Shown here one piece after another: positions 8,052-32,731 of a DNA stretch of 64,000 nt. Every line of letters begins with the position of its first letter. The stretch's first letter is position 1. The stretch is taken from contig OZ242318.1 in NCBI GenBank assembly GCA_965208105.1, forward strand, positions 544,001 to 608,000. The letters run 5' to 3'. The translations under genes and the position numbers were made by a program. Below the pieces are notes generated by a model. That model saw nothing but the letters and a program-made list of their open reading frames with translations. It made no database searches and was not told where the DNA came from. The stretch is from Candidatus Latescibacterota bacterium (GTDB taxonomy: Bacteria; Latescibacterota; UBA2968; UBA8231).

Positions 8052-8945
8052 TCAGCCGACAGTGCCGAATTTCGGGGTGGTGAAGCGCAGGTGGGTGTGG
8101 CCGCGCGCCAGGATATGCTGATAATTGGCCGCTCCATCCTTGAATGCTCCGTGTCCCCACGGGACCCAGGAGCGGGCGTTGCAATAGTGGTTCACGAATG
8201 CCCTGCGCCAGCGTTCACGGCTTCGGTTCGGATGCGAGCGGTGGAGGAGATGCGAATGAAAAAAGACCACGTCACCCGGGTCCACCACCACTGGCAGCGA
8301 CGACTCGTACCTCTCTGCAACCCTCGACAGGGTGTTGACCCCGTCGTCCAGGTCACTGGCCTTCTCCACCGTATCCAGGTCCTCGAAGACTCCTTCCGCG
8401 TGAATCAGACTGCCGCGCTCGCGGTCCGGATAAACGGGCTCGTGGTTGGATCCCGGCACCACCCACAGGCAACCAGTCTCCTCATCGGCCCTGTCCAGGG
8501 CCAGCCAGGCGCCCACCAGGGAATCGGGATAGGTGGTGATGTAGAAGGAATCCTGGTGCCATCCCTGGCCTCCCATCCCTGGTCCGTTGAAGAATAGCAT
8601 GGTCTGCAAAGCTAGGACGTCAGGCCCCACCAGCGCCTCCACCACGTCCAGGATCCGGGGATGCAGCAAAAATCGCTCGCTCAACGGATCGCGCCGGTGC
8701 AGCATGTGAACCCTCGCAACCCTCCGGCGCAATTCCTCCAGGCTGGCTCCTGGTTCTGGCGGCTCCATCCCTTCCATTCGCACCCGGCCTTCCAGTAAAT
8801 CCATGGCGTGGTCCTTCAGCTCACCCACCTCATCCTGCTCTACCAGAGCGGGAACCACGAGGAATCCATTTCTCTGGTATTCCCTGTACTGGCGCACCGC
8901 CACTTTGTAGCGGTCGATTCTCTCCCCTGCCACCGATTTGTACAT
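8052..8945 (-). CDS. Phytanoyl-CoA dioxygenase (PhyH) family Fe(II)/2OG oxygenase
   Basis: WHQDSFY, GCLWVVPGSN, GDVVFFHSHLLHRSHPN, RRAFVNHY. Confidence 0.9.
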   Translation of the reverse strand: MYKSVAGERIDRYKVAVRQYREYQRNGFLVVPALVEQDEVGELKDHAMDLLEGRVRMEGMEPPEPGASLEELRRRVARVHMLHRRDPLSERFLLHPRILDVVEALVGPDVLALQTMLFFNGPGMGGQGWHQDSFYITTYPDSLVGAWLALDRADEETGCLWVVPGSNHEPVYPDRERGSLIHAEGVFEDLDTVEKASDLDDGVNTLSRVAERYESSLPVVVDPGDVVFFHSHLLHRSHPNRSRERWRRAFVNHYCNARSWVPWGHGAFKDGAANYQHILARGHTHLRFTTPKFGTVG

Positions 8946-9251
8946 CGGGTGTCCCCTGCCTTGCCTTGCGATTTCGACGGCGGCAATCCGGGCTGGAACC
9001 GGCGCCGGCGCCCAAGACGGTTTTTAATCTAAACAAAATTCTGCAGGGGTGGAGCCCGGACGGGCGCGGTTTGCCGGGATCTGACGTCATCCCATATATT
9101 CTTCACCCGCTGCCTGCGGTCCCTTAGGAACTGCCCCCAGCCCCAATCACCATGTATGGAATCGGGATCGAAACAGCAACCCGCGGCAGCCGCATAGCCT
9201 GACAGATCCCGGCGCTAACCTTTCAGAGGCGAACCTCTCTACAGGGAAATA

Positions 9252-10319
9252 ATGTACTCATACCAGCGGCTCAAATCCTTTGCGCGATCGATTTTTTGCA
9301 AAATCGGCTGCCCTGAAAATGACGCGGAATCGGCCGCTGATTCCCTGCTCGCGGCCGATCTGCGCGGCGTCGATTCTCATGGCGTCGCCCGCCTTTCGGG
9401 CTATGTGCGCCTTTGGGAAATCGGACGGATCAACCCCAGGCCTGAAACTAAACTGGTTCACCAGACACCCAGCACCGCGGTAGTGGACGGAGACAGGGGG
9501 CTGGGCCTGGTGGTCGCACCTCGCGCCATGGAAATCGCCGTGGAAAAGGCCTCCGCCTGCGGCAGCGGCTGGGTTGCGGTGAGAAACGGCACCCATTTCG
9601 GTATTGCCGGCTACCATGCCATGATCGCCCTAAAAAACGACATGGTGGGTCTGGCCATGACCAATGCCACCCCGACTACCGCCCCCACTTTTTCCACCGA
9701 GAGACTGCTGGGAACCAATCCGATTGCCGTGGCAGTCCCCGCCGGCGACGAGCCTCCCTTCGTGGCTGACTTCGCGACCACCACGGCAGCACACGGCAAG
9801 CTTGAAATTCTCCAACGGCAGGGAGAGAGCGCCCCGCTTGGCTGGGTCCAGGACAGCAGGGGGCGTCCGACTGCCGATCCGCATGCTTTGCGGCACGGAG
9901 GCGCCTTGCTTCCGCTGGGCGGAGACCCCGAACACGGGAGCCACAAGGGTTTCTGTCTGGGGTCCACAGTCGACATCCTCTCGGCGGTTCTTTCCGGCGC
10001 CAACTATGGTCCCTGGGCGCCGGCATTCGGAGGCTTCCTGGCCACTGCAGAGGAGGAGGTGGGCGCGGGTCTGGGCCATTTTCTGGGAGCTCTGCGCATC
10101 GATGCCTTCAGGCCCGCGGGCGAGTTCAAAACCCATATGGACGGTTGGATAAGGAGATTCAGGAGTTCGGCCACCGTTCAGGGCCAGGACCGGGTGGTGA
10201 TTCCCGGAGACCCGGAAAGGGAATGCGAAAAGAAAAGAATCAAGGAGGGAATTCCCCTGGACCCGGAGGTGGAGCAGGATTTAAGGGAGTTGGCCGAGAA
10301 GTTCAAGGTCGAACTATAA
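9252..10319 (+). CDS. Ldh_2 family (type-2 malate/L-lactate/sulfolactate dehydrogenase-like) oxidoreductase
   Basis: ADLRGVDSHGVARL, HFGIAGYHA, LGTNPIA, LLPLGG, HKGFCL, IPGDPE. Confidence 0.9.
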   Translation: MYSYQRLKSFARSIFCKIGCPENDAESAADSLLAADLRGVDSHGVARLSGYVRLWEIGRINPRPETKLVHQTPSTAVVDGDRGLGLVVAPRAMEIAVEKASACGSGWVAVRNGTHFGIAGYHAMIALKNDMVGLAMTNATPTTAPTFSTERLLGTNPIAVAVPAGDEPPFVADFATTTAAHGKLEILQRQGESAPLGWVQDSRGRPTADPHALRHGGALLPLGGDPEHGSHKGFCLGSTVDILSAVLSGANYGPWAPAFGGFLATAEEEVGAGLGHFLGALRIDAFRPAGEFKTHMDGWIRRFRSSATVQGQDRVVIPGDPERECEKKRIKEGIPLDPEVEQDLRELAEKFKVEL

Positions 10320-10455
10320 AGCACCAGGCGACCCGGGTGGCGGTGGCACGAGCTCCGGACCTGTCAGTCCCCGTGTCCTCCCTCCCCACCGCGACGGCCG
10401 AATCGATCCTCGCAAAGATCACCATACTTTTTGAACTTATTCGTGGGACACAACA

Positions 10456-12018
10456 CTATACCTGGTAGGCGAACACCTTGGCGCGGAACATCCTGATCCG
10501 CATGCAGATGGTATCTCCCACGCTGGAGATGTCGCTCCGTCCGTTCCAGGTCACGACCTTCTCGCTTTCGTCACCGAGGATCCAGTCACATTCCGCAAAA
10601 GTCAGGCCCGGCCTACCCTCTGCATCGGGGTATTTTCGCGACGGCACCGAATTCAGCACCTCCACCTTGATCCACCCTCCGTTCTCGCAGCGATAGTTCA
10701 GGCGCAGCTCGCTCCTGGTGCGCCTGAGGGTCGGAACCGTGAAACGCCCCTCGGTTGCAGCGGCGATGCCGCAGAACCGCAGCGGCTCCCAGCGCGCCCA
10801 GCGCATCTGCAGCGGTTCCCGGTCCATCGGCATGCCCGGATGGAACCCATTGTGCAGACTGGTGCCTCCGACAAACGGCACCGCCCAGAAACCGTCCGGC
10901 AGCTCCACAATCCCTCCCTGGGCATATACCGCGCCTTCGCATCCGCTTCCCGCCGCACCGACGGGTACCGCCGCCCGGCGCTCGGGGCGGTCCCAGATAA
11001 GGCCGTCGCGGCTGAATGCGATCTGGTTGTCCACGTGGCCGCTGATCTGATCGAAGACGTGCACCAGCATGCAGTGAATCCCCATGCTGCCAGGGAAGGG
11101 AAAGTAGAATCCACCGTAGAACGATACCTGGGGCCCGTCGTGGGCATCGGGATGGAGAACCAGCTTGGGCGGCGGCCAATCGCAGAAATCACGGGTGCGG
11201 GTAAAGCCTATGCAGCGCCGAGCCGAGTCCCGCTCCGGAGTACTGTGGGCAAGGGTCTGAAACTCGCCCTGCTCCAATCCATGCACCCGGACATAGGTAA
11301 AGTAGGTGCTGGTCTCCGGCTCGAAGGTGGGATTGCCTCCGGTCCCGTCGGAGGGCATGTTGGCGACGGGGCGCTCGATCGGGGTCCAGTGCATGGCGTC
11401 GGGGGAGGTATAACCGCGGACAAACGCCCGCATCACCATCCGTGGCCCCTTGTAGTCACTTCCCCCGAACTGCATCTCTCCCATGCGCTTCAGACCTTCT
11501 TCGCCCTCCAGCTCCTCCCCCGTGTCCGGGTCGAACATGCCTGCCACTTCCACCATTCCCTTGAAGCGCTCCCGGGGTGGAGCATGGGGGTCCTTCATCA
11601 CGGGGCCGACGCACTGGTCGCAGATCAGGTTGTTCCTGGTCGAACCCCCGAACTCGATCCTGCCGATTTCTGGCAGAGTCCAGTCGTAGCCGTCCTCGCT
11701 TTGAGCGTAGGCGGTGCCACCGGTGTCGCGGTAGAGGATGCGGTAGAGGCCATCCTCCTTCCACGCGTACAGCGGCAGCAGTCCCCCCTGGCGATCGGAT
11801 GTCTCGGCAAAGAGCACCGGTGAGACCTTCGCCTCCTCCACCTGCAGCCGAATTCCGGCCGGAGAATCGAAAAGCCCGAACTGGCCGTGGCGGTCCTTCC
11901 AGCGGTTTCCCGCATAAACGTCGAACCAGTCGATCAGGGGATGCCATTCTCCCGAGTTTTCCCTGGCCTCGCGCCCGAACGGCGCTCCCGGCAGCATAAC
12001 TTTCTCTTTTTCGGTCAC
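10456..12018 (-). CDS. Hypothetical beta-propeller protein, GH32/GH43-clan glycoside hydrolase-like
   Basis: Asp-box-like YAQSEDGYDW, TSPDAMHW, FSRDGLIW and a C-terminal beta-sandwich. GTG start at 12018 preceded by an AGGAG RBS. Confidence 0.65.
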   Translation of the reverse strand: MTEKEKVMLPGAPFGREARENSGEWHPLIDWFDVYAGNRWKDRHGQFGLFDSPAGIRLQVEEAKVSPVLFAETSDRQGGLLPLYAWKEDGLYRILYRDTGGTAYAQSEDGYDWTLPEIGRIEFGGSTRNNLICDQCVGPVMKDPHAPPRERFKGMVEVAGMFDPDTGEELEGEEGLKRMGEMQFGGSDYKGPRMVMRAFVRGYTSPDAMHWTPIERPVANMPSDGTGGNPTFEPETSTYFTYVRVHGLEQGEFQTLAHSTPERDSARRCIGFTRTRDFCDWPPPKLVLHPDAHDGPQVSFYGGFYFPFPGSMGIHCMLVHVFDQISGHVDNQIAFSRDGLIWDRPERRAAVPVGAAGSGCEGAVYAQGGIVELPDGFWAVPFVGGTSLHNGFHPGMPMDREPLQMRWARWEPLRFCGIAAATEGRFTVPTLRRTRSELRLNYRCENGGWIKVEVLNSVPSRKYPDAEGRPGLTFAECDWILGDESEKVVTWNGRSDISSVGDTICMRIRMFRAKVFAYQV

Positions 12019-12047
12019 GATTTCTCCTGGTTTCCGGGAAGCCGGTG

Positions 12048-13307
12048 TCAGTTCCGGCGCTGAAGAATGGCGAAGTGGACCTCGGAGTAATCCCGGGAGA
12101 AGCAGCCGGTTCCCTTGACCCCGCGGGTCCAGGTCAGCGCCGGCGCCTCGGGCGCCTCCTGGTGAAAGCTCGAAACCATCTCCAGGGAGGGCTGCCAGCA
12201 GGGCAGCCGATCTCCGCGCCTGGAGATCTGGCTGGCGCTGAAGTTGCGCCCGCCGTCCTCCGAAAACAGGAGCACCACCTCGGCGCCATCCGATCCCCAA
12301 TCGCCCACCTTAGCCGATGTCTGCAGGGCGATGTAGAGGCCGCCGTGGCGATCGAAGGTGAGCGTGCCGTCGGCGGCGATGAACCCCTCCGGCCTGACCT
12401 GGCGCACCTCCTCCAGAAGGAGCCTCCTGTTCCAGCAGCGGCCATCGTGCCACAGGAGCAGGGCGTCGCCGTCCTCCCGGTCCACTACGATGGTGTAGGG
12501 GCGGTCGCTGCTGTCGCATGCCACGTTGGTGACCCTGATGTATCCCTGCTCCACCTCTTCGAGGACCTCGAAAGTATTCTTTCCAGTTGGAATGGGAACC
12601 TGCTCGCCGTCGCTTCTGGTCCAGGTGGATCCGGCGCTTTCGGAGCGCAGATAGCCGACCCGAAGACCGCGCTCGACCGGGTGTCCTTCAATCATGTGAA
12701 AAACCATGTGAATACGGTTGCGGCGGTCGATGCACAGCGAGTTGCCGTACTGGGTGTAGCCGTAGGGCTCCTCGGTGCGCACGAGCTCGGCGGCGGGCAG
12801 CCAGTCTCCCCCCTCTGCGCGGGCGCGCTGGTACATCAGGTGGGAAGCGGGGGCGTGCTCCATCCATTCGACCTTGGAGGCGCAGCCGCGGTAGGCCAGG
12901 TGCAACTGGTCGTCGCGGTCGCAGACGAGGCTGGGATAGGTGGGCCCGTCGCCGACGGGCCTGTAGTGCTGCCACTCCGACTGATCCATCGGGTCGCGGC
13001 TTCGGCGGTGTTGAAAGGGACTGAAGCCATGGGAACCGGTGACCACGTGGAGGTAGCCGGAACTGTCCATGGCGAGGGCGGGACCGCAGTGATTGTCCAC
13101 CCCGCAGCCCACGGTGTCGGTGTCGCTCCAGTCGCCGGTGGCGCGGTCGAGGGTTTTGATCTGGTTGGCGGCGAGATAATCCTGCCAGGTGACGAAGGTC
13201 CTGCCCTCCTGGGTCAGGATCTTGCTGGTCCAGTTGTAGAGGGTCGCCCTGGTGGATCCTCTCGTCGAAAGGAGGGTGTGGGAAACAAGGTCTACGGCCG
13301 TGGACAT
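12048..13307 (-). CDS. BNR-4 repeat-containing (Asp-box) propeller protein
   Basis: DNHCGPALAMDSSGYLHVVTGSH, PTYPSL, SESAGSTW, SEDGGRNF. Confidence 0.75.
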   Translation of the reverse strand: MSTAVDLVSHTLLSTRGSTRATLYNWTSKILTQEGRTFVTWQDYLAANQIKTLDRATGDWSDTDTVGCGVDNHCGPALAMDSSGYLHVVTGSHGFSPFQHRRSRDPMDQSEWQHYRPVGDGPTYPSLVCDRDDQLHLAYRGCASKVEWMEHAPASHLMYQRARAEGGDWLPAAELVRTEEPYGYTQYGNSLCIDRRNRIHMVFHMIEGHPVERGLRVGYLRSESAGSTWTRSDGEQVPIPTGKNTFEVLEEVEQGYIRVTNVACDSSDRPYTIVVDREDGDALLLWHDGRCWNRRLLLEEVRQVRPEGFIAADGTLTFDRHGGLYIALQTSAKVGDWGSDGAEVVLLFSEDGGRNFSASQISRRGDRLPCWQPSLEMVSSFHQEAPEAPALTWTRGVKGTGCFSRDYSEVHFAILQRRN

Positions 13308-28353: not shown

Positions 28354-29202
28354 ATGATCAATTTTCCTCGTTCCACCTTTACCTGGGAAGCCCACCCCTT
28401 CAAGCCGCACCCTCATTACAGATGGCCGGGAGGATTCGTCGGCGAGCCAGGCCAAATCTACCACGTGCGCTTCATCCTGGAAGCCCGCTGCGCCTTGCGC
28501 GACGGCGGCGGGGCCGAGCTTGCCGAGCTATTTCTGGGCGCAGCCTGCCGTAGCGAATACACCATCGCCAGCGAAAATCTGTTCCAGATCCCCAGCGGCG
28601 AGTGGCGCATGGCCTTCAGCCGCTCCTCCTCCCCGGCCATCGCCGAGCGCCCGAGCACCGAGACCGAGCCGGTGAGAGCGCGCCCACTCGCCGAGGCCTA
28701 CGGCGATTTCTCCATCGACGTGCGCTCCCATCCGGCATGGGAGGCACTGGAGGATGGAGAGGCCATCGCCGCCTCGACCTTTGCAGGGGATGCTCAAAAC
28801 GCCCGCTCCGTGTACCGTGACGAGGCGACCGGCATCGAAGTGGAACTCGAATACCCCATCAAAGTCATGAACCTCCATCGCCCCGGCGGCCAGTACCAGG
28901 TCTGTACCGGACCGCTGCTTCTTCCCGACCTGGCGACCTGGGACGGGAAAGACCTGCACCGGGTCTTCGTCGCCCACGCCGCCTTCTCGGGCAGCGACCG
29001 GGTGGAGTTCATTCTGCGGCGCCCGGTGCGTGCGTCCCCCGAGGAGCGCGCCTGGCTCGACCTGCCCCGGGGCCGAGACCGGCTGGAGCTGCACGACCCT
29101 TCCAACCCGCCCTCCGGCTACCCGCCCCCGCGGCATCAACCCCTGATCTACAACGAGACCTGGGATCTGGCCGCGCACAACGTGGTTCTGCGGGCGGATT
29201 GA
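28354..29202 (+). CDS. Hypothetical protein (282 aa)
   Basis: AGGAG RBS, typical codon usage, motifs CRSEYT, EYPIKVMN, YQVCTGP. Confidence 0.7.
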   Translation: MINFPRSTFTWEAHPFKPHPHYRWPGGFVGEPGQIYHVRFILEARCALRDGGGAELAELFLGAACRSEYTIASENLFQIPSGEWRMAFSRSSSPAIAERPSTETEPVRARPLAEAYGDFSIDVRSHPAWEALEDGEAIAASTFAGDAQNARSVYRDEATGIEVELEYPIKVMNLHRPGGQYQVCTGPLLLPDLATWDGKDLHRVFVAHAAFSGSDRVEFILRRPVRASPEERAWLDLPRGRDRLELHDPSNPPSGYPPPRHQPLIYNETWDLAAHNVVLRAD

Positions 29203-29412
29203 GCCCGGAGACGGTGGAGATGCAGGCCAGGTGTGCCCTCCGAACCCCCCATTGTTCTGCGGGCAGGAGTGATCGTGGACCCTTTTGCAAAGAGGCCAGG
29301 GGCACGCAAGAGTGAAGATCGCCCGGCAGGGTCCGGGAAGCGGTGGACATCCCGGCGGAATAGCTGCTGTATCAAGCAGCGGCCTTACGACAATGTTTAA
29401 AGGAGAAGAGCA

Positions 29413-29763
29413 ATGGCCAAGAAGTTGGAATGGCGCTACCACCGCCCAGGCTGAACCAGCTGCAAGCACGCACAAGAGTTCCTTGTGCTCAAAGGCATTG
29501 GCGACGGAGTGGTGCAGAATGCGGCGAAAGACCCGATCGAGGGTTCTGAGACCCTCGCCCTGCTGGAGGACGCCACCGAGCTGTTGGTCGCCAGGGGCAA
29601 GCGGGTCCTGCGCTTCGACCTGGGTAACCGGCGTCCCCCGGACGAGGAGCTGCTCGGGCTTCTGTTGGGACGCTCGGGCAAGCTGCGGGCTCCGGCGCTG
29701 CGCTACCGCACCCGCCTGATCGTGGGCTACAACCAGGAACTGCTGGCGCAGGGGCTGGGATAG
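29413..29763 (+). CDS. ArsC/Spx-family thioredoxin-fold selenoprotein (UxxC), 116 aa
   Basis: AGGAG RBS then ATG at 29413. Translates MAKKLEWRYHRPG-TGA(29452-54)-TSCKHAQEFL...LLGRSGKLRAPALRYRTRLIVGYN. The TGA is at the first Cys position of the CxxC motif, with a hairpin 3' of it. Confidence 0.85.
29470..29488 (+). promoter_or_regulatory. Putative bacterial SECIS hairpin
   Basis: GCACAAG-AGTTC-CTTGTGC, a 7-bp perfect stem with a G-containing loop, starting 16 nt after the UGA. Confidence 0.6.
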
Positions 29764-30057
29764 ACAGGGGAAGGGTTCGATCCAAGTGGGTTGGAGCTTC
29801 TGTTTCAGGTAGTCGGCTGCAGACCGGAGCGCCAAGGCAATTTGGCCCCAGAGCTTCCTCGGAGCGGAGGCCTCCACCGTGCCTTGTCCTGAGGTGAGCT
29901 GTGCGAGGCAAGCTGCCGCGCCCGGCAGCAAACCTGGCCATAGCATTCTCTTCTCTATCCTCGGCGTGACCAAGTTTGGCAGAGTATCTTAATATATGGC
30001 GACATTTTCTACCTGTGCGCGGCTCTCCCAGGCATCGTCATCGAGAAGGATGGAACA

Positions 30058-31581
30058 GTGACCGATTTTCGCGTCGACGCCAGGCTGGTCCAGCGCGCCG
30101 TGGTGACCCTGGCCGCGGTAGGAGCCTACCGCCTGGTCCAGCAGGTCGTCACCGTCCCCGGCTTCGACCATTCGGTGATGGCCGAGTTCTTCGGGGGCTC
30201 TCAGGGTCCTCCGGGCCTGCCGGGTGTGGCATTGGATTTAATTCTCCCAAACTACATCGCCGCCTCGGTCATGGTCCTCCTCCTCAGTGCAGTAGTACCC
30301 TTCCTCAAGCGCCTGCGCGAGGGAGGGGCCGAGGAACAAAAGCGCCTGCAACGCATCATCATAGTCCTCACCCTTTTCCAGACCGCGGCTTCAGCCCTGC
30401 AAACCGCTTACTACCTCGAGGAGATCCACGGGCCTGTGTTCGCTCCCTTGGAGGGTATCCACGGACCACTGCCCACTCTGCCGGCTATCCCCGATCCGGG
30501 GTGGGGGTTTCGCGCCGGGGTGGTGCTGACCCTTGCCGCCGCGGCCATGCTGGTCCTCTGGCTTGCCCACCTGGTCACGGCACGGGGCCTCGGCAACGGG
30601 GTCGTCCTGCTGCTGGCCTCCGACATCCTGGCGCAGTGGCCTGCTGCCGTGCAGGCCCAGTGGGACGCCTTGAGGAACGTCCCCGATCCCCTGCACCAGG
30701 GACTCAGAGCTCCCCTCTTCATCCTCGCCGTGCTCGTACTGGCGGTGATCCTGGTGATGGCGCAGCGCAGGGTAGAGCTGGAACGGATCTCGGGCACAGG
30801 CACCCACAGTGGACCGGCTCCGGCCCTTCCTCTCAGGATCAATCCGGTCGGTGTTCTGCCCCTCATGTTGGCCCAGGGATGGCTCCATTTCGGCATATTT
30901 TCCTTGAGCCCCGGTCCCTTGCTCAACCACACTCCTGTCTCCGGTATCGCATTCTGCCTGCTCGTCGCACTGCTCGCCTACCTCTACGCCGCCGTCACCT
31001 TCCATCCCCGCGACGCGGTCGAGCGCCTGCAACGCTACGGCTTCCGGCTCAGGGAAGCCGCCTCCCCGGAGGACGCCGCCCGCCGTCTGCGCGCCACCCT
31101 GAACCGGGTCATGGTTCCGGGCATCGTGGGGATCTGCGTCCTGGGATTGGCGCCCTGGATCGCAGCGAACTGGATGGACATTCCGCCAGCGGGCACCCTG
31201 TTTGGCCTGGAATGGCTGGTGCTTGCCGCCGTGGGTCTGCACCTCGTGGAGCAGGCCAGAAGCAGACAGGCCGGCGCCGGGGCCGACCAGGTGGTGGTAT
31301 TGGCGGCCGAGACCAGGTTCGAGCTCGACCTCGCCGCAGATATCCTGCGCCGGCAGGGCATCCCCAGCCGGCCCCTGGACAACCGGGTCATCAGCGCCAC
31401 AGGCACCTTCGCCTTCTGGGAGGTGAGCCGTCCGCGCTGGCCGAGCTGGACCATTTACCGACACCTCGGCGGCGGCGACGCGGTCCTCCTGGTCGACCGG
31501 GCTGATGCCGAGAGAGCCAGGAACGCGCTGGGCGAAAACGGCCTCCTGGAAATGGCGACTGCGGCGAATAGGCGGAGGTGA
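30058..31581 (+). CDS. Divergent SecY-like membrane protein with a C-terminal DUF2007-like domain
   Basis: AYRLVQQVVTVPGFD, PNYIAASVMVLLL, LWLAHLVTARGLGNGVVLLL, QRRV, LPLRINPVGVLPLM, YAAVTFHPRDAVERLQRYG. Tail: ETRFELDLAADILRRQGIPS...LLVDRADAERARNAL. Confidence 0.8.
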   Translation: MTDFRVDARLVQRAVVTLAAVGAYRLVQQVVTVPGFDHSVMAEFFGGSQGPPGLPGVALDLILPNYIAASVMVLLLSAVVPFLKRLREGGAEEQKRLQRIIIVLTLFQTAASALQTAYYLEEIHGPVFAPLEGIHGPLPTLPAIPDPGWGFRAGVVLTLAAAAMLVLWLAHLVTARGLGNGVVLLLASDILAQWPAAVQAQWDALRNVPDPLHQGLRAPLFILAVLVLAVILVMAQRRVELERISGTGTHSGPAPALPLRINPVGVLPLMLAQGWLHFGIFSLSPGPLLNHTPVSGIAFCLLVALLAYLYAAVTFHPRDAVERLQRYGFRLREAASPEDAARRLRATLNRVMVPGIVGICVLGLAPWIAANWMDIPPAGTLFGLEWLVLAAVGLHLVEQARSRQAGAGADQVVVLAAETRFELDLAADILRRQGIPSRPLDNRVISATGTFAFWEVSRPRWPSWTIYRHLGGGDAVLLVDRADAERARNALGENGLLEMATAANRRR

Positions 31582-31669
31582 CCACGGACGCCGGGATGGC
31601 GCCGCCGGACCTGGAAATTTAACACCCTGGGCACATGGCTTCCCCCAACCCGCCATCGAAAGGAGCACC

Positions 31670-32635
31670 ATGTCCTTCAAGTTCGTCTTTCTTTCCCCCG
31701 GCAGCGAACGCAACCGCTTCCTGGCTTCTGCCATGGCGGCGGTCCCGGGGATGGAGATCGTCCATTGCGAAAACCGCTCGGAAGACCTCGAAGCTCTCCC
31801 CGGTGCCCAGGCCTGCTTCGGCACCCTGGACCCTGAGCTTCTGGCCTCGGCCCACCGGCTCCGATGGCTGGCCGCCCCGGCAGCCGGTCCGCCAAAGGGC
31901 TACTACTTTCCCGAGCTCATCGCCAGCGACGTGGTGGTGACCAATTTCCGCGGCATCTTCAACGACCACATTTCCGCCCATATCATGGCCTTCGTGCTCG
32001 CCTTCGCGCGCGGAATGCACCGCTATTTCCGCGACCAGTTCGCCGGCCGCTGGCGCGAGGGGGGCGAGTCGAGCCCCTCGATCCACCTTCCCGAGGCCAC
32101 CGCTCTGATCGTCGGCGTCGGCGGGATCGGCGCCGAGACGGCGCGCCAGTGCAAAAACTGGGGCATGGCAACCATCGGCGTCGACCCCAGGGTGGGATCG
32201 CCGCCTCCCGGGGTGGACGAGCTGCACCATCCCGATGACCTCGACGGACTCCTGCCACGGGCGGATTTCGTCCTAGTCACCGCGCCGCAGACGCCCCGGA
32301 CCCAGGGCCTTTTCAGCGGCACCCGCTTCGAGCGCATGAAGACGGGCGCCTACTTCGTCAACATCGGCCGCGGCGCCAACGTCAGCCTGGCCGACCTCGA
32401 CCATGCCCTGCGCCAGGGGCTGATCGCCGGCGCCGGCCTCGACGTGTTCGAGGAAGAGCCGTTGCCCCGGGATCACCCGCTGTGGACCGCGCCGAACTTC
32501 CTCATGACCCCCCACGTGGCTGCGGCCGGCCCCTACCTGGAGGAGCGCCGCCGCGACCTGCTGGTGGAAAACTGCCGGCGCTTCGCACGCGGCGAGGGCC
32601 TGGCAAACGTGGTGGACAAAGAGAACTGGTTCTAA
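31670..32635 (+). CDS. D-2-hydroxyacid dehydrogenase family protein
   Basis: VGVGGIG, APQTPRT, FVNIGRG, GAGLDVFEEEPL, MTPHVA. Confidence 0.92.
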   Translation: MSFKFVFLSPGSERNRFLASAMAAVPGMEIVHCENRSEDLEALPGAQACFGTLDPELLASAHRLRWLAAPAAGPPKGYYFPELIASDVVVTNFRGIFNDHISAHIMAFVLAFARGMHRYFRDQFAGRWREGGESSPSIHLPEATALIVGVGGIGAETARQCKNWGMATIGVDPRVGSPPPGVDELHHPDDLDGLLPRADFVLVTAPQTPRTQGLFSGTRFERMKTGAYFVNIGRGANVSLADLDHALRQGLIAGAGLDVFEEEPLPRDHPLWTAPNFLMTPHVAAAGPYLEERRRDLLVENCRRFARGEGLANVVDKENWF

Positions 32636-32731
32636 GCAGACTGGCGCCTGCGTCCAGGTAAGGCTGGAACAGAGTGGCGGTCCCTGGCCGAAAAGCGACC
32701 GAGGGTGCCCCTGGTGGTGGTATTCGGAGAA

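Follow-up and report, generated by a model that had tools for sequence, protein, structure and literature searches.

A SecY paralog with a fused cytoplasmic domain that is predicted to occupy the funnel of its own channel in a Latescibacterota bacterium

SecY2, an accessory system of Firmicutes, is a second, divergent and non-essential SecY copy that exists beside the housekeeping one and is not known to carry a fused domain. Channels of the SecY/Sec61 family are thought to be inactive alone and to be opened only by docking of the ribosome, SecA or Sec63 in trans (bioRxiv 10.1101/2020.12.14.422728). The cytoplasmic C4 and C5 loops (L6/7 and L8/9) bind SecA, the ribosome, Syd and the FN3 domain of Sec63 (PMC8082313; bioRxiv 10.1101/2020.12.14.422728); the second of these sources describes loop 6/7 as a site on which the ribosome, SecA and the FN3 domain of Sec63 all dock, and in the first the binding of Syd to C4 and C5 is described as mutually exclusive with SecA. 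Here we describe a gene in a 64,000-nucleotide stretch of a Candidatus Latescibacterota genome (contig OZ242318.1, positions 544,001 to 608,000; hereafter the window, with positions counted from its first letter) that encodes a SecY paralog with a fused C-terminal cytoplasmic domain (hereafter the C-domain). A conserved insert in the C-domain is predicted to enter the cytoplasmic funnel of the paralog's own channel.

The gene is an open reading frame (ORF) with a GTG start codon that encodes 507 amino acids (aa) followed by a stop, and its homologs start at the same position in the alignment. The product matches the Pfam SecY profile PF00344 at 139.9 bits (E = 1.5e-40, cut-off 32.2), with residues 66-394 aligned to profile positions 10-303 of 306. 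All of the SecY motifs that a first-pass annotation of the window had quoted are present in the translation (YRLVQQVVTVPGFD, PNYIAAS, GLGNGVVLL, QRRV, LPLRINPVGVLP and FHPRDAVERLQRYG). The source genome, a single contig of 4.85 Mb, holds a second PF00344 match at 386.6 bits, which is the canonical secY and is flanked upstream by the genes for S5 and L15 and downstream by those for S13, S11 and S4. Genome-wide there is one match each to SecA (SecA_DEAD), SecE, SecG and YidC. The paralog has none of secA2, secE or secG near it, and its neighbours are an enolase-superfamily gene, a gene for a 282-aa protein, an ArsC-like gene, and genes for a 2-hydroxyacid dehydrogenase, a methyltransferase and an amidohydrolase, which bears out the first-pass view of an orphan copy outside the spc operon and away from translocase partners. 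We conclude that the window gene is a real, intact SecY-family member and a paralog of the housekeeping copy.

The paralog belongs to the SecY family, and because its scores fall below the cut-offs for both groups it is counted neither with the ordinary SecYs nor with SecY2. Against the housekeeping equivalog model TIGR00967 it reaches 111.3 bits (cut-off 253.6), and against the SecY2 models NF009082 and TIGR02920 it reaches 34.6 bits (cut-off 353) and 32.9 bits (cut-off 249.6). With housekeeping SecYs, such as those of E. coli (5abb) and the T. thermophilus SecYEG complex (5aww), it shares the ten-helix fold (Z 20-26), the GxGNG motif of transmembrane helix (TM) 5, the PL+xN..G..P motif of TM7 and six hydrophobic pore-ring positions. 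Unlike them, it lies outside the ribosomal-protein cluster, has lost the basic hairpin of C4 and the P-G-x-R-P-G motif of C5 with R357, has a plug that is eroded in the window clade, and carries an extra C-terminal domain without a counterpart in any listed SecY/Sec61 chain. It resembles SecY2 in being an extra, divergent and dispensable copy. Unlike SecY2, it resides in a genome without SecA2 and has no conserved neighbours at the 8 loci scanned, and its hosts are metagenome-assembled genomes (MAGs) of the Gemmatimonadota type and of other Gram-negative lineages.

A word-indexed search returned 30 proteins of 340-545 aa (27 of them at 485-545 aa) with 49-100% identity to the paralog, most covering 91-100% of the query. 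Below this close family there is a sharp fall to canonical SecYs, which show 24-28% identity and cover the first ~400 residues only. A phmmer search of 1.84 billion cluster representatives gave 2386 matches at E <= 0.001, and the C-domain is carried by 55 of the best 149 representatives (the query's own cluster excluded), always C-terminal to a SecY-like body. Conservation extends from end to end in alignments of 27 close (A1) and 41 diverse members (A2). PF00344 scores above its gathering threshold in all 41 diverse members, and four columns are invariant among them: N180 and G181 in the GNG of TM5, G265 in TM7 and G449 in the C-domain. The fusion is retained in members down to ~21-25% identity.

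A phylogeny, a check that the first-pass annotation had proposed, was built from 66 members of the family together with 95 canonical SecYs, of which one is the genome's own copy and 94 are others. The fusion family forms one clade of all 66 members with no canonical sequence inside (FastTree 0.999; IQ-TREE Shimodaira-Hasegawa-like approximate likelihood ratio test [SH-aLRT] 99.8), and its mean branch from the shared node is 2.3 substitutions per site vs 0.9 for the canonical sequences. In both trees the family adjoins a clade holding the genome's own SecY and SecYs labelled Gemmatimonadota. The FastTree sister is a 46-sequence clade that includes the genome's canonical SecY (0.876), and the IQ-TREE sister is one unlabelled SecY (P0147), followed by a 61-sequence clade with the canonical SecY (SH-aLRT 81.5). 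An old duplication of the housekeeping secY in or near the lineage of the source genome is the likely origin, with the caveats for the donor lineage that the canonical set was picked by similarity to the query and is biased and that the immediate sister differs by method. The public labels of family members are Gemmatimonadaceae, Gemmatimonadota, 'Candidatus Latescibacterota', 'Candidatus Eisenbacteria' and Bacteroidota MAGs. In the ESM Atlas, the clusters nearest the paralog bear SecY + DUF2007 labels on 17% and 11% of their members, and the commonest phyla among clusters with both labels are Acidobacteriota and Myxococcota, which we treat as leads only. The earliest-branching family member in the IQ-TREE tree, the distant metagenomic protein P0129 (572 aa), carries a Cys-rich zinc ribbon that is inserted after TM10 and before the C-domain.

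AlphaFold2 modelled the full-length protein with a mean predicted local distance difference test score (pLDDT) of 90.2 and a predicted template-modelling score (pTM) of 0.91, and the model contains a complete ten-helix SecY. Foldseek gave 53 matches at E <= 0.001, and all 50 rows listed are SecY or Sec61 chains. With VIA-align, bacterial SecY chains matched at Z 20-25.7 over 367-387 residues, and in 49 of the 50 rows listed the match to a SecY/Sec61 chain ends at model residue ~412. The best eight VIA-align rows are SecY chains of substrate-engaged SecA-SecY complexes (Z 24.2-25.7; root-mean-square deviation [rmsd] 3.3-3.7). Resting and peptide-bound T. thermophilus SecYEG rank lower (Z 20.3-20.7) despite a higher sequence identity, and Foldseek ranks the two groups alike, which hints that the modelled body may be in a primed or open-like state.

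Residues were compared in a joint alignment of the 66 family members and 94 canonical sequences, and E. coli numbering was transferred from chain 5abb_A, to which the genome's canonical SecY was aligned with HMMER. We took the pore-ring landmarks to be E. coli I82, I86, I187, I191, I278 and I408, with R357 for the C5 loop, and then checked that each is in place on 5abb_A (I82/I86 in GIMPYIS, I187/I191 in GNGISIIIF, I278 in VIPAIFA, R357 in PGIRPG and I408 in GGTSLLIVV). Their equivalents in the window paralog's pore ring are L63, I67, V182, L186, M270 and V388, and these six positions are hydrophobic in 66, 66, 66, 65, 58 and 62 of the 66 family members, respectively. N180 and G181 stay nearly invariant when the canonical SecYs are added, N262 (the N270 equivalent) and the core motifs of TM5 and TM7 are nearly invariant as well, and the lateral-gate helices TM2b and TM7 are conserved.

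The cytoplasmic loops show the opposite pattern. The mean net charge of C4 is +0.44 in the family vs +5.43 in canonical SecYs, and the equivalents of R251 and R255 are K/R in 3/66 and 1/66 family members vs 83/94 and 73/94 canonical sequences. In the C5 loop, where the genome's canonical SecY has 'GFIPGVRPGKRT', the paralog has 'GFRLREAASPED'. The R357 equivalent, an Ala in the paralog, is K/R in 1/66 family members vs 89/94 canonical sequences, and the flanking P, G, P and G are mostly replaced, so that the loss of the GIRPG motif first noticed in this one protein extends to the family. The plug behaves differently. The linker from the 'PG' of TM1 to the 'P(N)Y' of TM2b is proline-rich and has 32 residues vs 43 in the genome's canonical SecY. 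In A1 the window clade shows a gap of 12 residues in the plug where most of the family has sequence. The column of F67 is gapped in 49 of the 66 members in the joint alignment, while several distant members keep a canonical plug/TM2b segment, FALGI.PY. Because those distant members keep it, plug erosion is secondary and specific to the window clade. The shortened plug of the first-pass annotation holds for the window paralog and not as a family trait. As judged from the alignments, the traits that mark the family are the altered C4 and C5 loops and the fused domain.

In the AlphaFold2 model, the C-domain, of ~85 residues, consists of beta1 (411-416), alpha1 (420-432), beta2 (437-441), an insert of 33 residues (442-474), beta3 (475-480) and alpha2 (481-493). 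The insert, with the pattern R..ATGT.A.WE..RP, is the most conserved part of the protein: among 72 members, R443 is found in 68, G449 in 72, T/S450 in 71, W454 in 70, E455 in 69, P459 in 71, P462 in 66, L470 in 71 and G473 in 71. When the C-domain was folded alone its core kept a pLDDT of 90-98, and the insert had a pLDDT of 55-67 vs 96-97 in the full-length model. In this form, insert included, the domain appears to occur solely fused to SecY, as 30 of the 31 longer database matches to a C-domain profile carry PF00344 and the remaining one is a fragment from a 1.5-kb contig. When stand-alone or split C-domains were sought separately, 4658 candidates yielded one match, and its gene call is truncated and begins in TM9.

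The position of the insert was predicted with two-chain ESMFold2, in which the body (residues 1-404) and the C-terminal region (405-507) were supplied with the 41-row family alignment. The two chains docked with ipSAE values of 0.75, 0.75 and 0.76 vs 0.01 for the best of three controls, which the tool rates as 'supports binding'; in the tool's calibration 58 of 80 solved complexes attain this mark, as do 2 of 110 mismatched pairs, rates that are rough here since our own alignment was supplied. The docked partner had a pLDDT of 76, and the runs agree in at least 91% of contacts. Because PDB searches show no like solved complex, the docking probably does not reproduce a structure that the predictor had already learned. 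On the domain side the interface is mostly the insert (438-473), and on the body side it is formed by the cytoplasmic halves of TM2b (66-78), the TM5 GNG (179-183, with 186), TM7 (262-267) and TM10 (387-395), together with C4 (248-260) and C5 (312-329). Of the six equivalents of the pore ring, I67, V182, L186 and V388 belong to this interface, and the prediction thus puts the insert inside the cytoplasmic funnel, as far as the pore-ring constriction. Interface positions have lower conservation entropy than the rest, both in the C-domain (1.71 vs 2.18 bits) and in the body (1.80 vs 2.48 bits). Inter-domain covarying pairs fall in the interface in 7 of the top 20 (2.1 expected), 12 of the top 50 (5.2 expected) and 19 of the top 100 (10.3 expected). 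The pTM of the full-length AlphaFold2 model, its pLDDT of 96-97 over the domain and the context-dependent pLDDT of the insert are in agreement with this placement. The first-pass annotation did not foresee this predicted occupation of the funnel by the fused domain.

In PII proteins the T-loop lies between strands beta2 and beta3. The T-loops of the PII protein GlnK enter Amt channels and block them (PMC3198391). With GlnK-AmtB (e.g. 2ns1) the paralog appears to share a small beta-alpha-beta...beta-alpha fold with a long beta2-beta3 loop at the channel's cytoplasmic mouth, a placement that is predicted in the paralog, and the insert, between strands 437-441 and 475-480, occupies the topological place of the T-loop. 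The C-domain differs from PII in that a helix replaces the fourth strand and the fold similarity is weak (E ~0.05). Unlike in GlnK-AmtB, the module is joined in cis to its channel, which is a SecY, and the assembly is modelled as a 1:1 monomer rather than as a PII trimer on a trimer. Syd and the Sec63 FN3 domain resemble the C-domain in being non-motor occupants of the C4/C5 surface that compete with SecA or the ribosome. Unlike the C-domain, they act in trans on an unaltered channel and are not reported to reach the pore ring, whereas the occupant in the paralog is covalent and the loops themselves are changed. From DUF2007 (PF09413, 'putative prokaryotic signal transducing protein') the C-domain differs in having a conserved insert of ~30 residues outside the 66-position profile and in being found only fused to SecY.

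Across the family, the aligned sequences keep the 10-TM core and the hydrophobic ring and have lost the residues on which SecA and the ribosome dock, and the domain is fused in every member. We give about an even chance to a self-gated SecY-type channel that is independent of SecA and of the ribosome. The gene would then encode a functional, specialised channel, born by duplication of the housekeeping secY, whose cytoplasmic face was rebuilt. By analogy with the GlnK T-loop in AmtB, the insert may plug the channel in cis or serve as a pseudo-substrate, with the domain as its switch, such that gating by the channel's own domain (through a ligand, a modification or cargo) would take the place of SecA or the ribosome. 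The occupied state could be closed and sealed until a signal arrives, or primed with lateral entry of cargo, and the channel would serve an accessory, dispensable task. A polypeptide-handling channel is favoured over a pure scaffold because the pore ring and the lateral-gate helices are conserved; SecA independence, transport and sensing are inferred. If true, a SecY without docking residues and with its own funnel-occupying domain would represent a third way of channel control, and it would offer a ready tool for the study of how the channel is primed, sealed and opened at its lateral gate without a motor. Possible, though to us doubtful, is the broader claim that the SecY/Sec61 superfamily has here its first member gated by a ligand or signal, in which a cis PII-like domain with a T-loop equivalent in the funnel primes or seals the channel unaided, and a metabolic signal switches polypeptide translocation or solute conduction without SecA, ribosome or Sec63-type partners in several bacterial phyla. 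A literature search judged by title and abstract found, among the papers listed, none on a SecY fused to a DUF2007 or PII-like domain and no functional one on DUF2007/PF09413, and the preprint bioRxiv 202358 contains no occurrence of Gemmatimon-, Acidobacteria or Myxococc-. The SecY + DUF2007 architecture is visible in database labels and is uncharacterised.

Several results weigh against a self-gated channel. All of the structural statements are predictions, the residue contacts come from two-chain ESMFold2 alone, the high pTM of the AlphaFold2 model is indirect support for funnel placement, and the models and the covariation share much of their alignment and are not independent. The ranking of engaged above resting SecY is confounded, as the engaged rows apparently represent one SecY species without a resting counterpart in the list. 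The assignment of the C-domain to PII or DUF2007 is weak. The DUF2007 match of the window paralog has E = 0.049 and 14.2 bits vs a cut-off of 25.7 (profile positions 4-64 of 66), the C-domain has no Foldseek match in the PDB at E <= 0.001, and its best VIA-align rows are the ring-building domains PrgK and EscJ of type III secretion systems, at Z 8.5-9.5, a range that is common for small folds. The top Foldseek rows are weak and comprise GlnK/GlnZ (PII; E 0.05-0.06, template-modelling scores 0.36-0.42) and 2hfv (E 0.079); with VIA-align the latter, which we take to be a DUF2007 structure, gives the longest alignment (73 residues; Z 7.7, rmsd 3.4, 19% identity). In the set of 41 diverse members, 11 do have a DUF2007 match at E <= 0.01, the best of them at 8e-5. 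We regard the C-domain as a small ferredoxin-like or PII-like sandwich for which DUF2007 membership is plausible, not proven. Of the DUF2007-like domain first proposed for this gene, a real and conserved domain, probably of the signalling-protein type, stands, and the resemblance itself is weak in the window paralog. A C-domain profile run against PDB sequences found three GGDEF chains only (E 0.7-1.1), which we took as chance.

Further results also count against a self-gated channel. The conserved hydrophobic pore ring would also fit an ordinary polypeptide-conducting channel, the net charge of C5 is unchanged (1.24 vs 1.01), so that its loss is limited to specific residues, and no cargo, partner or conserved neighbour was found among 42 flanking ORFs at 8 loci. 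A SecY2-like accessory translocon, fed with dedicated substrates by the single SecA or by ribosomes, with a peripheral C-domain (e.g. for recruitment of cargo or a chaperone) and a free funnel, would accommodate the first two of these points along with the complete SecY fold, the near-invariance of N262 and the TM5/TM7 motifs, and the likeness of the model to substrate-engaged SecY. It accounts poorly for the family-wide loss of R357 and of the C4 basic residues, for the lack of a SecA2 and the low scores with the SecY2 models, and for the predicted position of the C-domain over the very loops used by SecA and the ribosome, and we consider it quite improbable. We also think it unlikely that the protein has ceased to transport polypeptides and is instead either permanently sealed, as a scaffold or as a regulator titrating translocon partners such as SecE, SecG or YidC, or a channel turned to small solutes under the control of a PII-like domain. 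The funnel predicted to be filled in cis, the plug eroded in the window clade, the absence of a dedicated motor in a dispensable and fast-evolving gene, and the fact that the nearest mechanistic analogue, GlnK-AmtB, controls a small-solute channel all point that way. However, six hydrophobic pore-ring positions and conserved TM2b and TM7 are hard to explain for a scaffold, and several distant members have the canonical plug/TM2b motif.

Codon comparisons indicate that the paralog is under purifying selection that is far weaker than that on the housekeeping secY. The ratio of nonsynonymous to synonymous substitution rates (dN/dS; Nei-Gojobori, pairs with measurable dS) lies at 0.27-0.51 among carrier genomes, so that no pair reaches 1, vs 0.00-0.08 for canonical secY in the same genome pairs. 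In five of the six pairs examined the C-domain has a lower ratio than the gene overall; its values are 0.16-0.32 in five pairs and 0.37 in the remaining one. Between the two closest genomes, the canonical proteins are 96.6% identical by tblastn, and the paralogs 69.5% (73% in another search). The paralog evolves ~10 times faster than canonical secY and is dispensable, which counts against a specialised channel, as do its distribution and one broken copy. Nine of 168 sampled genomes of the phylum carry the gene, one copy each, and 159 lack it by the C-domain profile. The carriers are the window genome and a congener, five of ten genomes of another genus of the same family, leaving five of ten within that genus without the gene, and one genome in each of two other families. 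One copy (in G042) is split by a DDE transposase gene. These features, together with the plug deletion and the 11-residue repeat of the window clade, could suggest a functionless duplicate drifting to loss. Yet the gene is open and full length in eight of nine carriers, the fusion persists among highly diverged members with insert residues that are invariant or nearly so, the fold is predicted with confidence, dN/dS stays below 1, and contigs of other studies carry an intact copy that is ~98% identical. We consider decay to be largely refuted and very improbable. The same dN/dS values, pore ring and ten-helix model speak against the first-pass description of the paralog as 'degenerate', and the neutral decay that the annotation had held open as its possible undoing is contradicted by the conserved fusion as well.

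Table 1. Positions of the features of the SecY paralog and its surroundings; positions are those of the window unless a locus is named.
Feature	Position	Strand	Basis or remark
Whole gene, SecY paralog with fused C-terminal domain	30058..31581	+	ORF and translation; Pfam SecY 139.9 bits; ~30 close and >40 distant full-length homologs
SecY channel body, residues 1-404, 10 TM helices	30058..31269	+	AlphaFold2 helices H8-30 to H385-404, pLDDT mostly 90-98; Foldseek/VIA-align ~1-412, Z up to 25.7
Plug (TM2a) remnant, residues 46-58 'GGSQGPPGLPGVA'	30193..30231	+	No helix, pLDDT 62-69
11-residue repeat in periplasmic TM3-TM4 loop (LEEIHGPVFAP / LEGIHGP)	30415..30468	+	In 1 of 27 rows of A1 (window protein alone); pLDDT 55-56
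TM5 'GLGNGVV' motif with pore-ring equivalent V182 (L186 next)	30586..30606	+	Residues 179-183 and 186 in predicted C-domain interface
C4 loop (TM6-TM7), residues 236-256, without basic hairpin tip	30763..30825	+	Net charge +1
C5 loop (TM8-TM9), residues 328-343 'GFRLREAASPEDAARR', P-G-x-R-P-G gone	31039..31086	+	R357 equivalent is Ala
C-terminal cytoplasmic alpha/beta domain, residues 411-493, beta-alpha-beta-insert-beta-alpha	31288..31536	+	pLDDT 96-97 in full-length model
Conserved insert between beta2 and beta3, residues 442-474 (NRVISATGTFAFWEVSRPRWPSWTIYRHLGGG)	31381..31479	+	Predicted to enter cytoplasmic funnel
Split copy in G042, three segments	10782-12260; 9388-10506; about 8830-9084 (locus L044)	- (all)	
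282-aa protein	28354..29202	+	Without Pfam or PADLOC match
ArsC-family protein, candidate selenoprotein	29413..29763	+	25.9 bits (Pfam ArsC, cut-off 24; read through)
In-frame TGA of ArsC-like gene	29452-29454	+	G-U-T-S-C if selenocysteine
Terminator-like hairpin between ArsC-like gene and paralog	29776-29795		
PIN/Phd pair, locus L024	9998-10725 (locus L024)	-	
PIN/Phd pair, locus L026	7675-8340 (locus L026)	+	

The gene neighbourhood was surveyed by a Pfam scan of the 42 flanking ORFs of the 8 loci, in which no conserved neighbour or operon partner was found beyond synteny within the genus. The flanks held enolase-superfamily, dehydrogenase, glyoxalase and amidohydrolase genes, PIN/Phd pairs and a sensor kinase. 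The same scan found no asp or glycosyltransferase neighbours, and Asp-specific models were not searched by name. Flanks retrieved by a profile scan of genome contigs came from five loci, all of close relatives, and a metagenome scan added two contigs of 2.2 and 3.3 kb; for the distant members (28-41% identity) the neighbourhood was covered for G009 and G042. In two g18 genomes (G167 and G165; g18 is a genus), the paralog has a PIN toxin and Phd/YefM antitoxin pair as its immediate neighbour that is missing there from the others, which shows that gene content near the locus turns over. In the split G042 copy (locus L044, G042:C1:2504500-2522500), the SecY-like part has 492 aa with an N-terminal extension of ~160 aa, and the DDE transposase gene sits between it and the C-domain. 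A defence system was considered and set aside, as PADLOC gave no match for the paralog or two of its neighbours, and so was a mobile origin, since the eight plasmid records and one phage record found by tblastn are ordinary SecY-type matches that all end at query residue 413 or earlier.

Just upstream of the paralog and on the same strand is the ArsC-like gene, which the first-pass annotation had taken for a selenoprotein and which, with its in-frame TGA, we retain as a candidate; SelA and SelB are encoded in the genome. A 7-bp hairpin begins 18 nucleotides past this TGA and its energy is ordinary (z -0.67). The ArsC-like gene adjoins the paralog in the congener G107 too, where the 282-aa protein is likewise conserved and syntenic. 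Between the ArsC-like gene and the paralog there is a gap of 295 bases with the terminator-like hairpin. An Rfam search of positions 29300-30150 returned nothing credible (one CRISPR-DR row, E 0.77), and no sigma-70-like promoter match was found in 29300-31800.

Synonymous divergence differs between the two secY copies. For the pair G000-G107, dS is 0.38 for the paralog and 0.99 for canonical secY, and in genus g18 neither copy is consistently the lower (e.g. 0.22 for the paralog vs 0.07 for canonical secY in one pair, and 0.29 vs 0.37 in another). This mismatch could reflect codon-bias effects on the Nei-Gojobori estimate or an exchange of the paralog among lineages.

DNA of ~98% identity over window positions 29400..32700 was found in sponge and marine metagenome contigs of three other studies (X4, X6 and X12), and the source organism or its close kin appears to be sponge- or marine-associated. 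Four contigs of one metatranscriptomic library (depth 2-3.2) match parts of the gene at 91-98% identity; DNA carry-over is possible, and contigs cannot show transcription. The 33-base repeat underlying the 11-residue duplication was unreported by Tandem Repeats Finder, and the duplication is apparently kept in the X4 contig, whose two gaps fall elsewhere. In the related populations X4 and X6, single-base indels occur at window positions 31538..31544, past the C-domain, in agreement with the variable C-terminal tails of the family.

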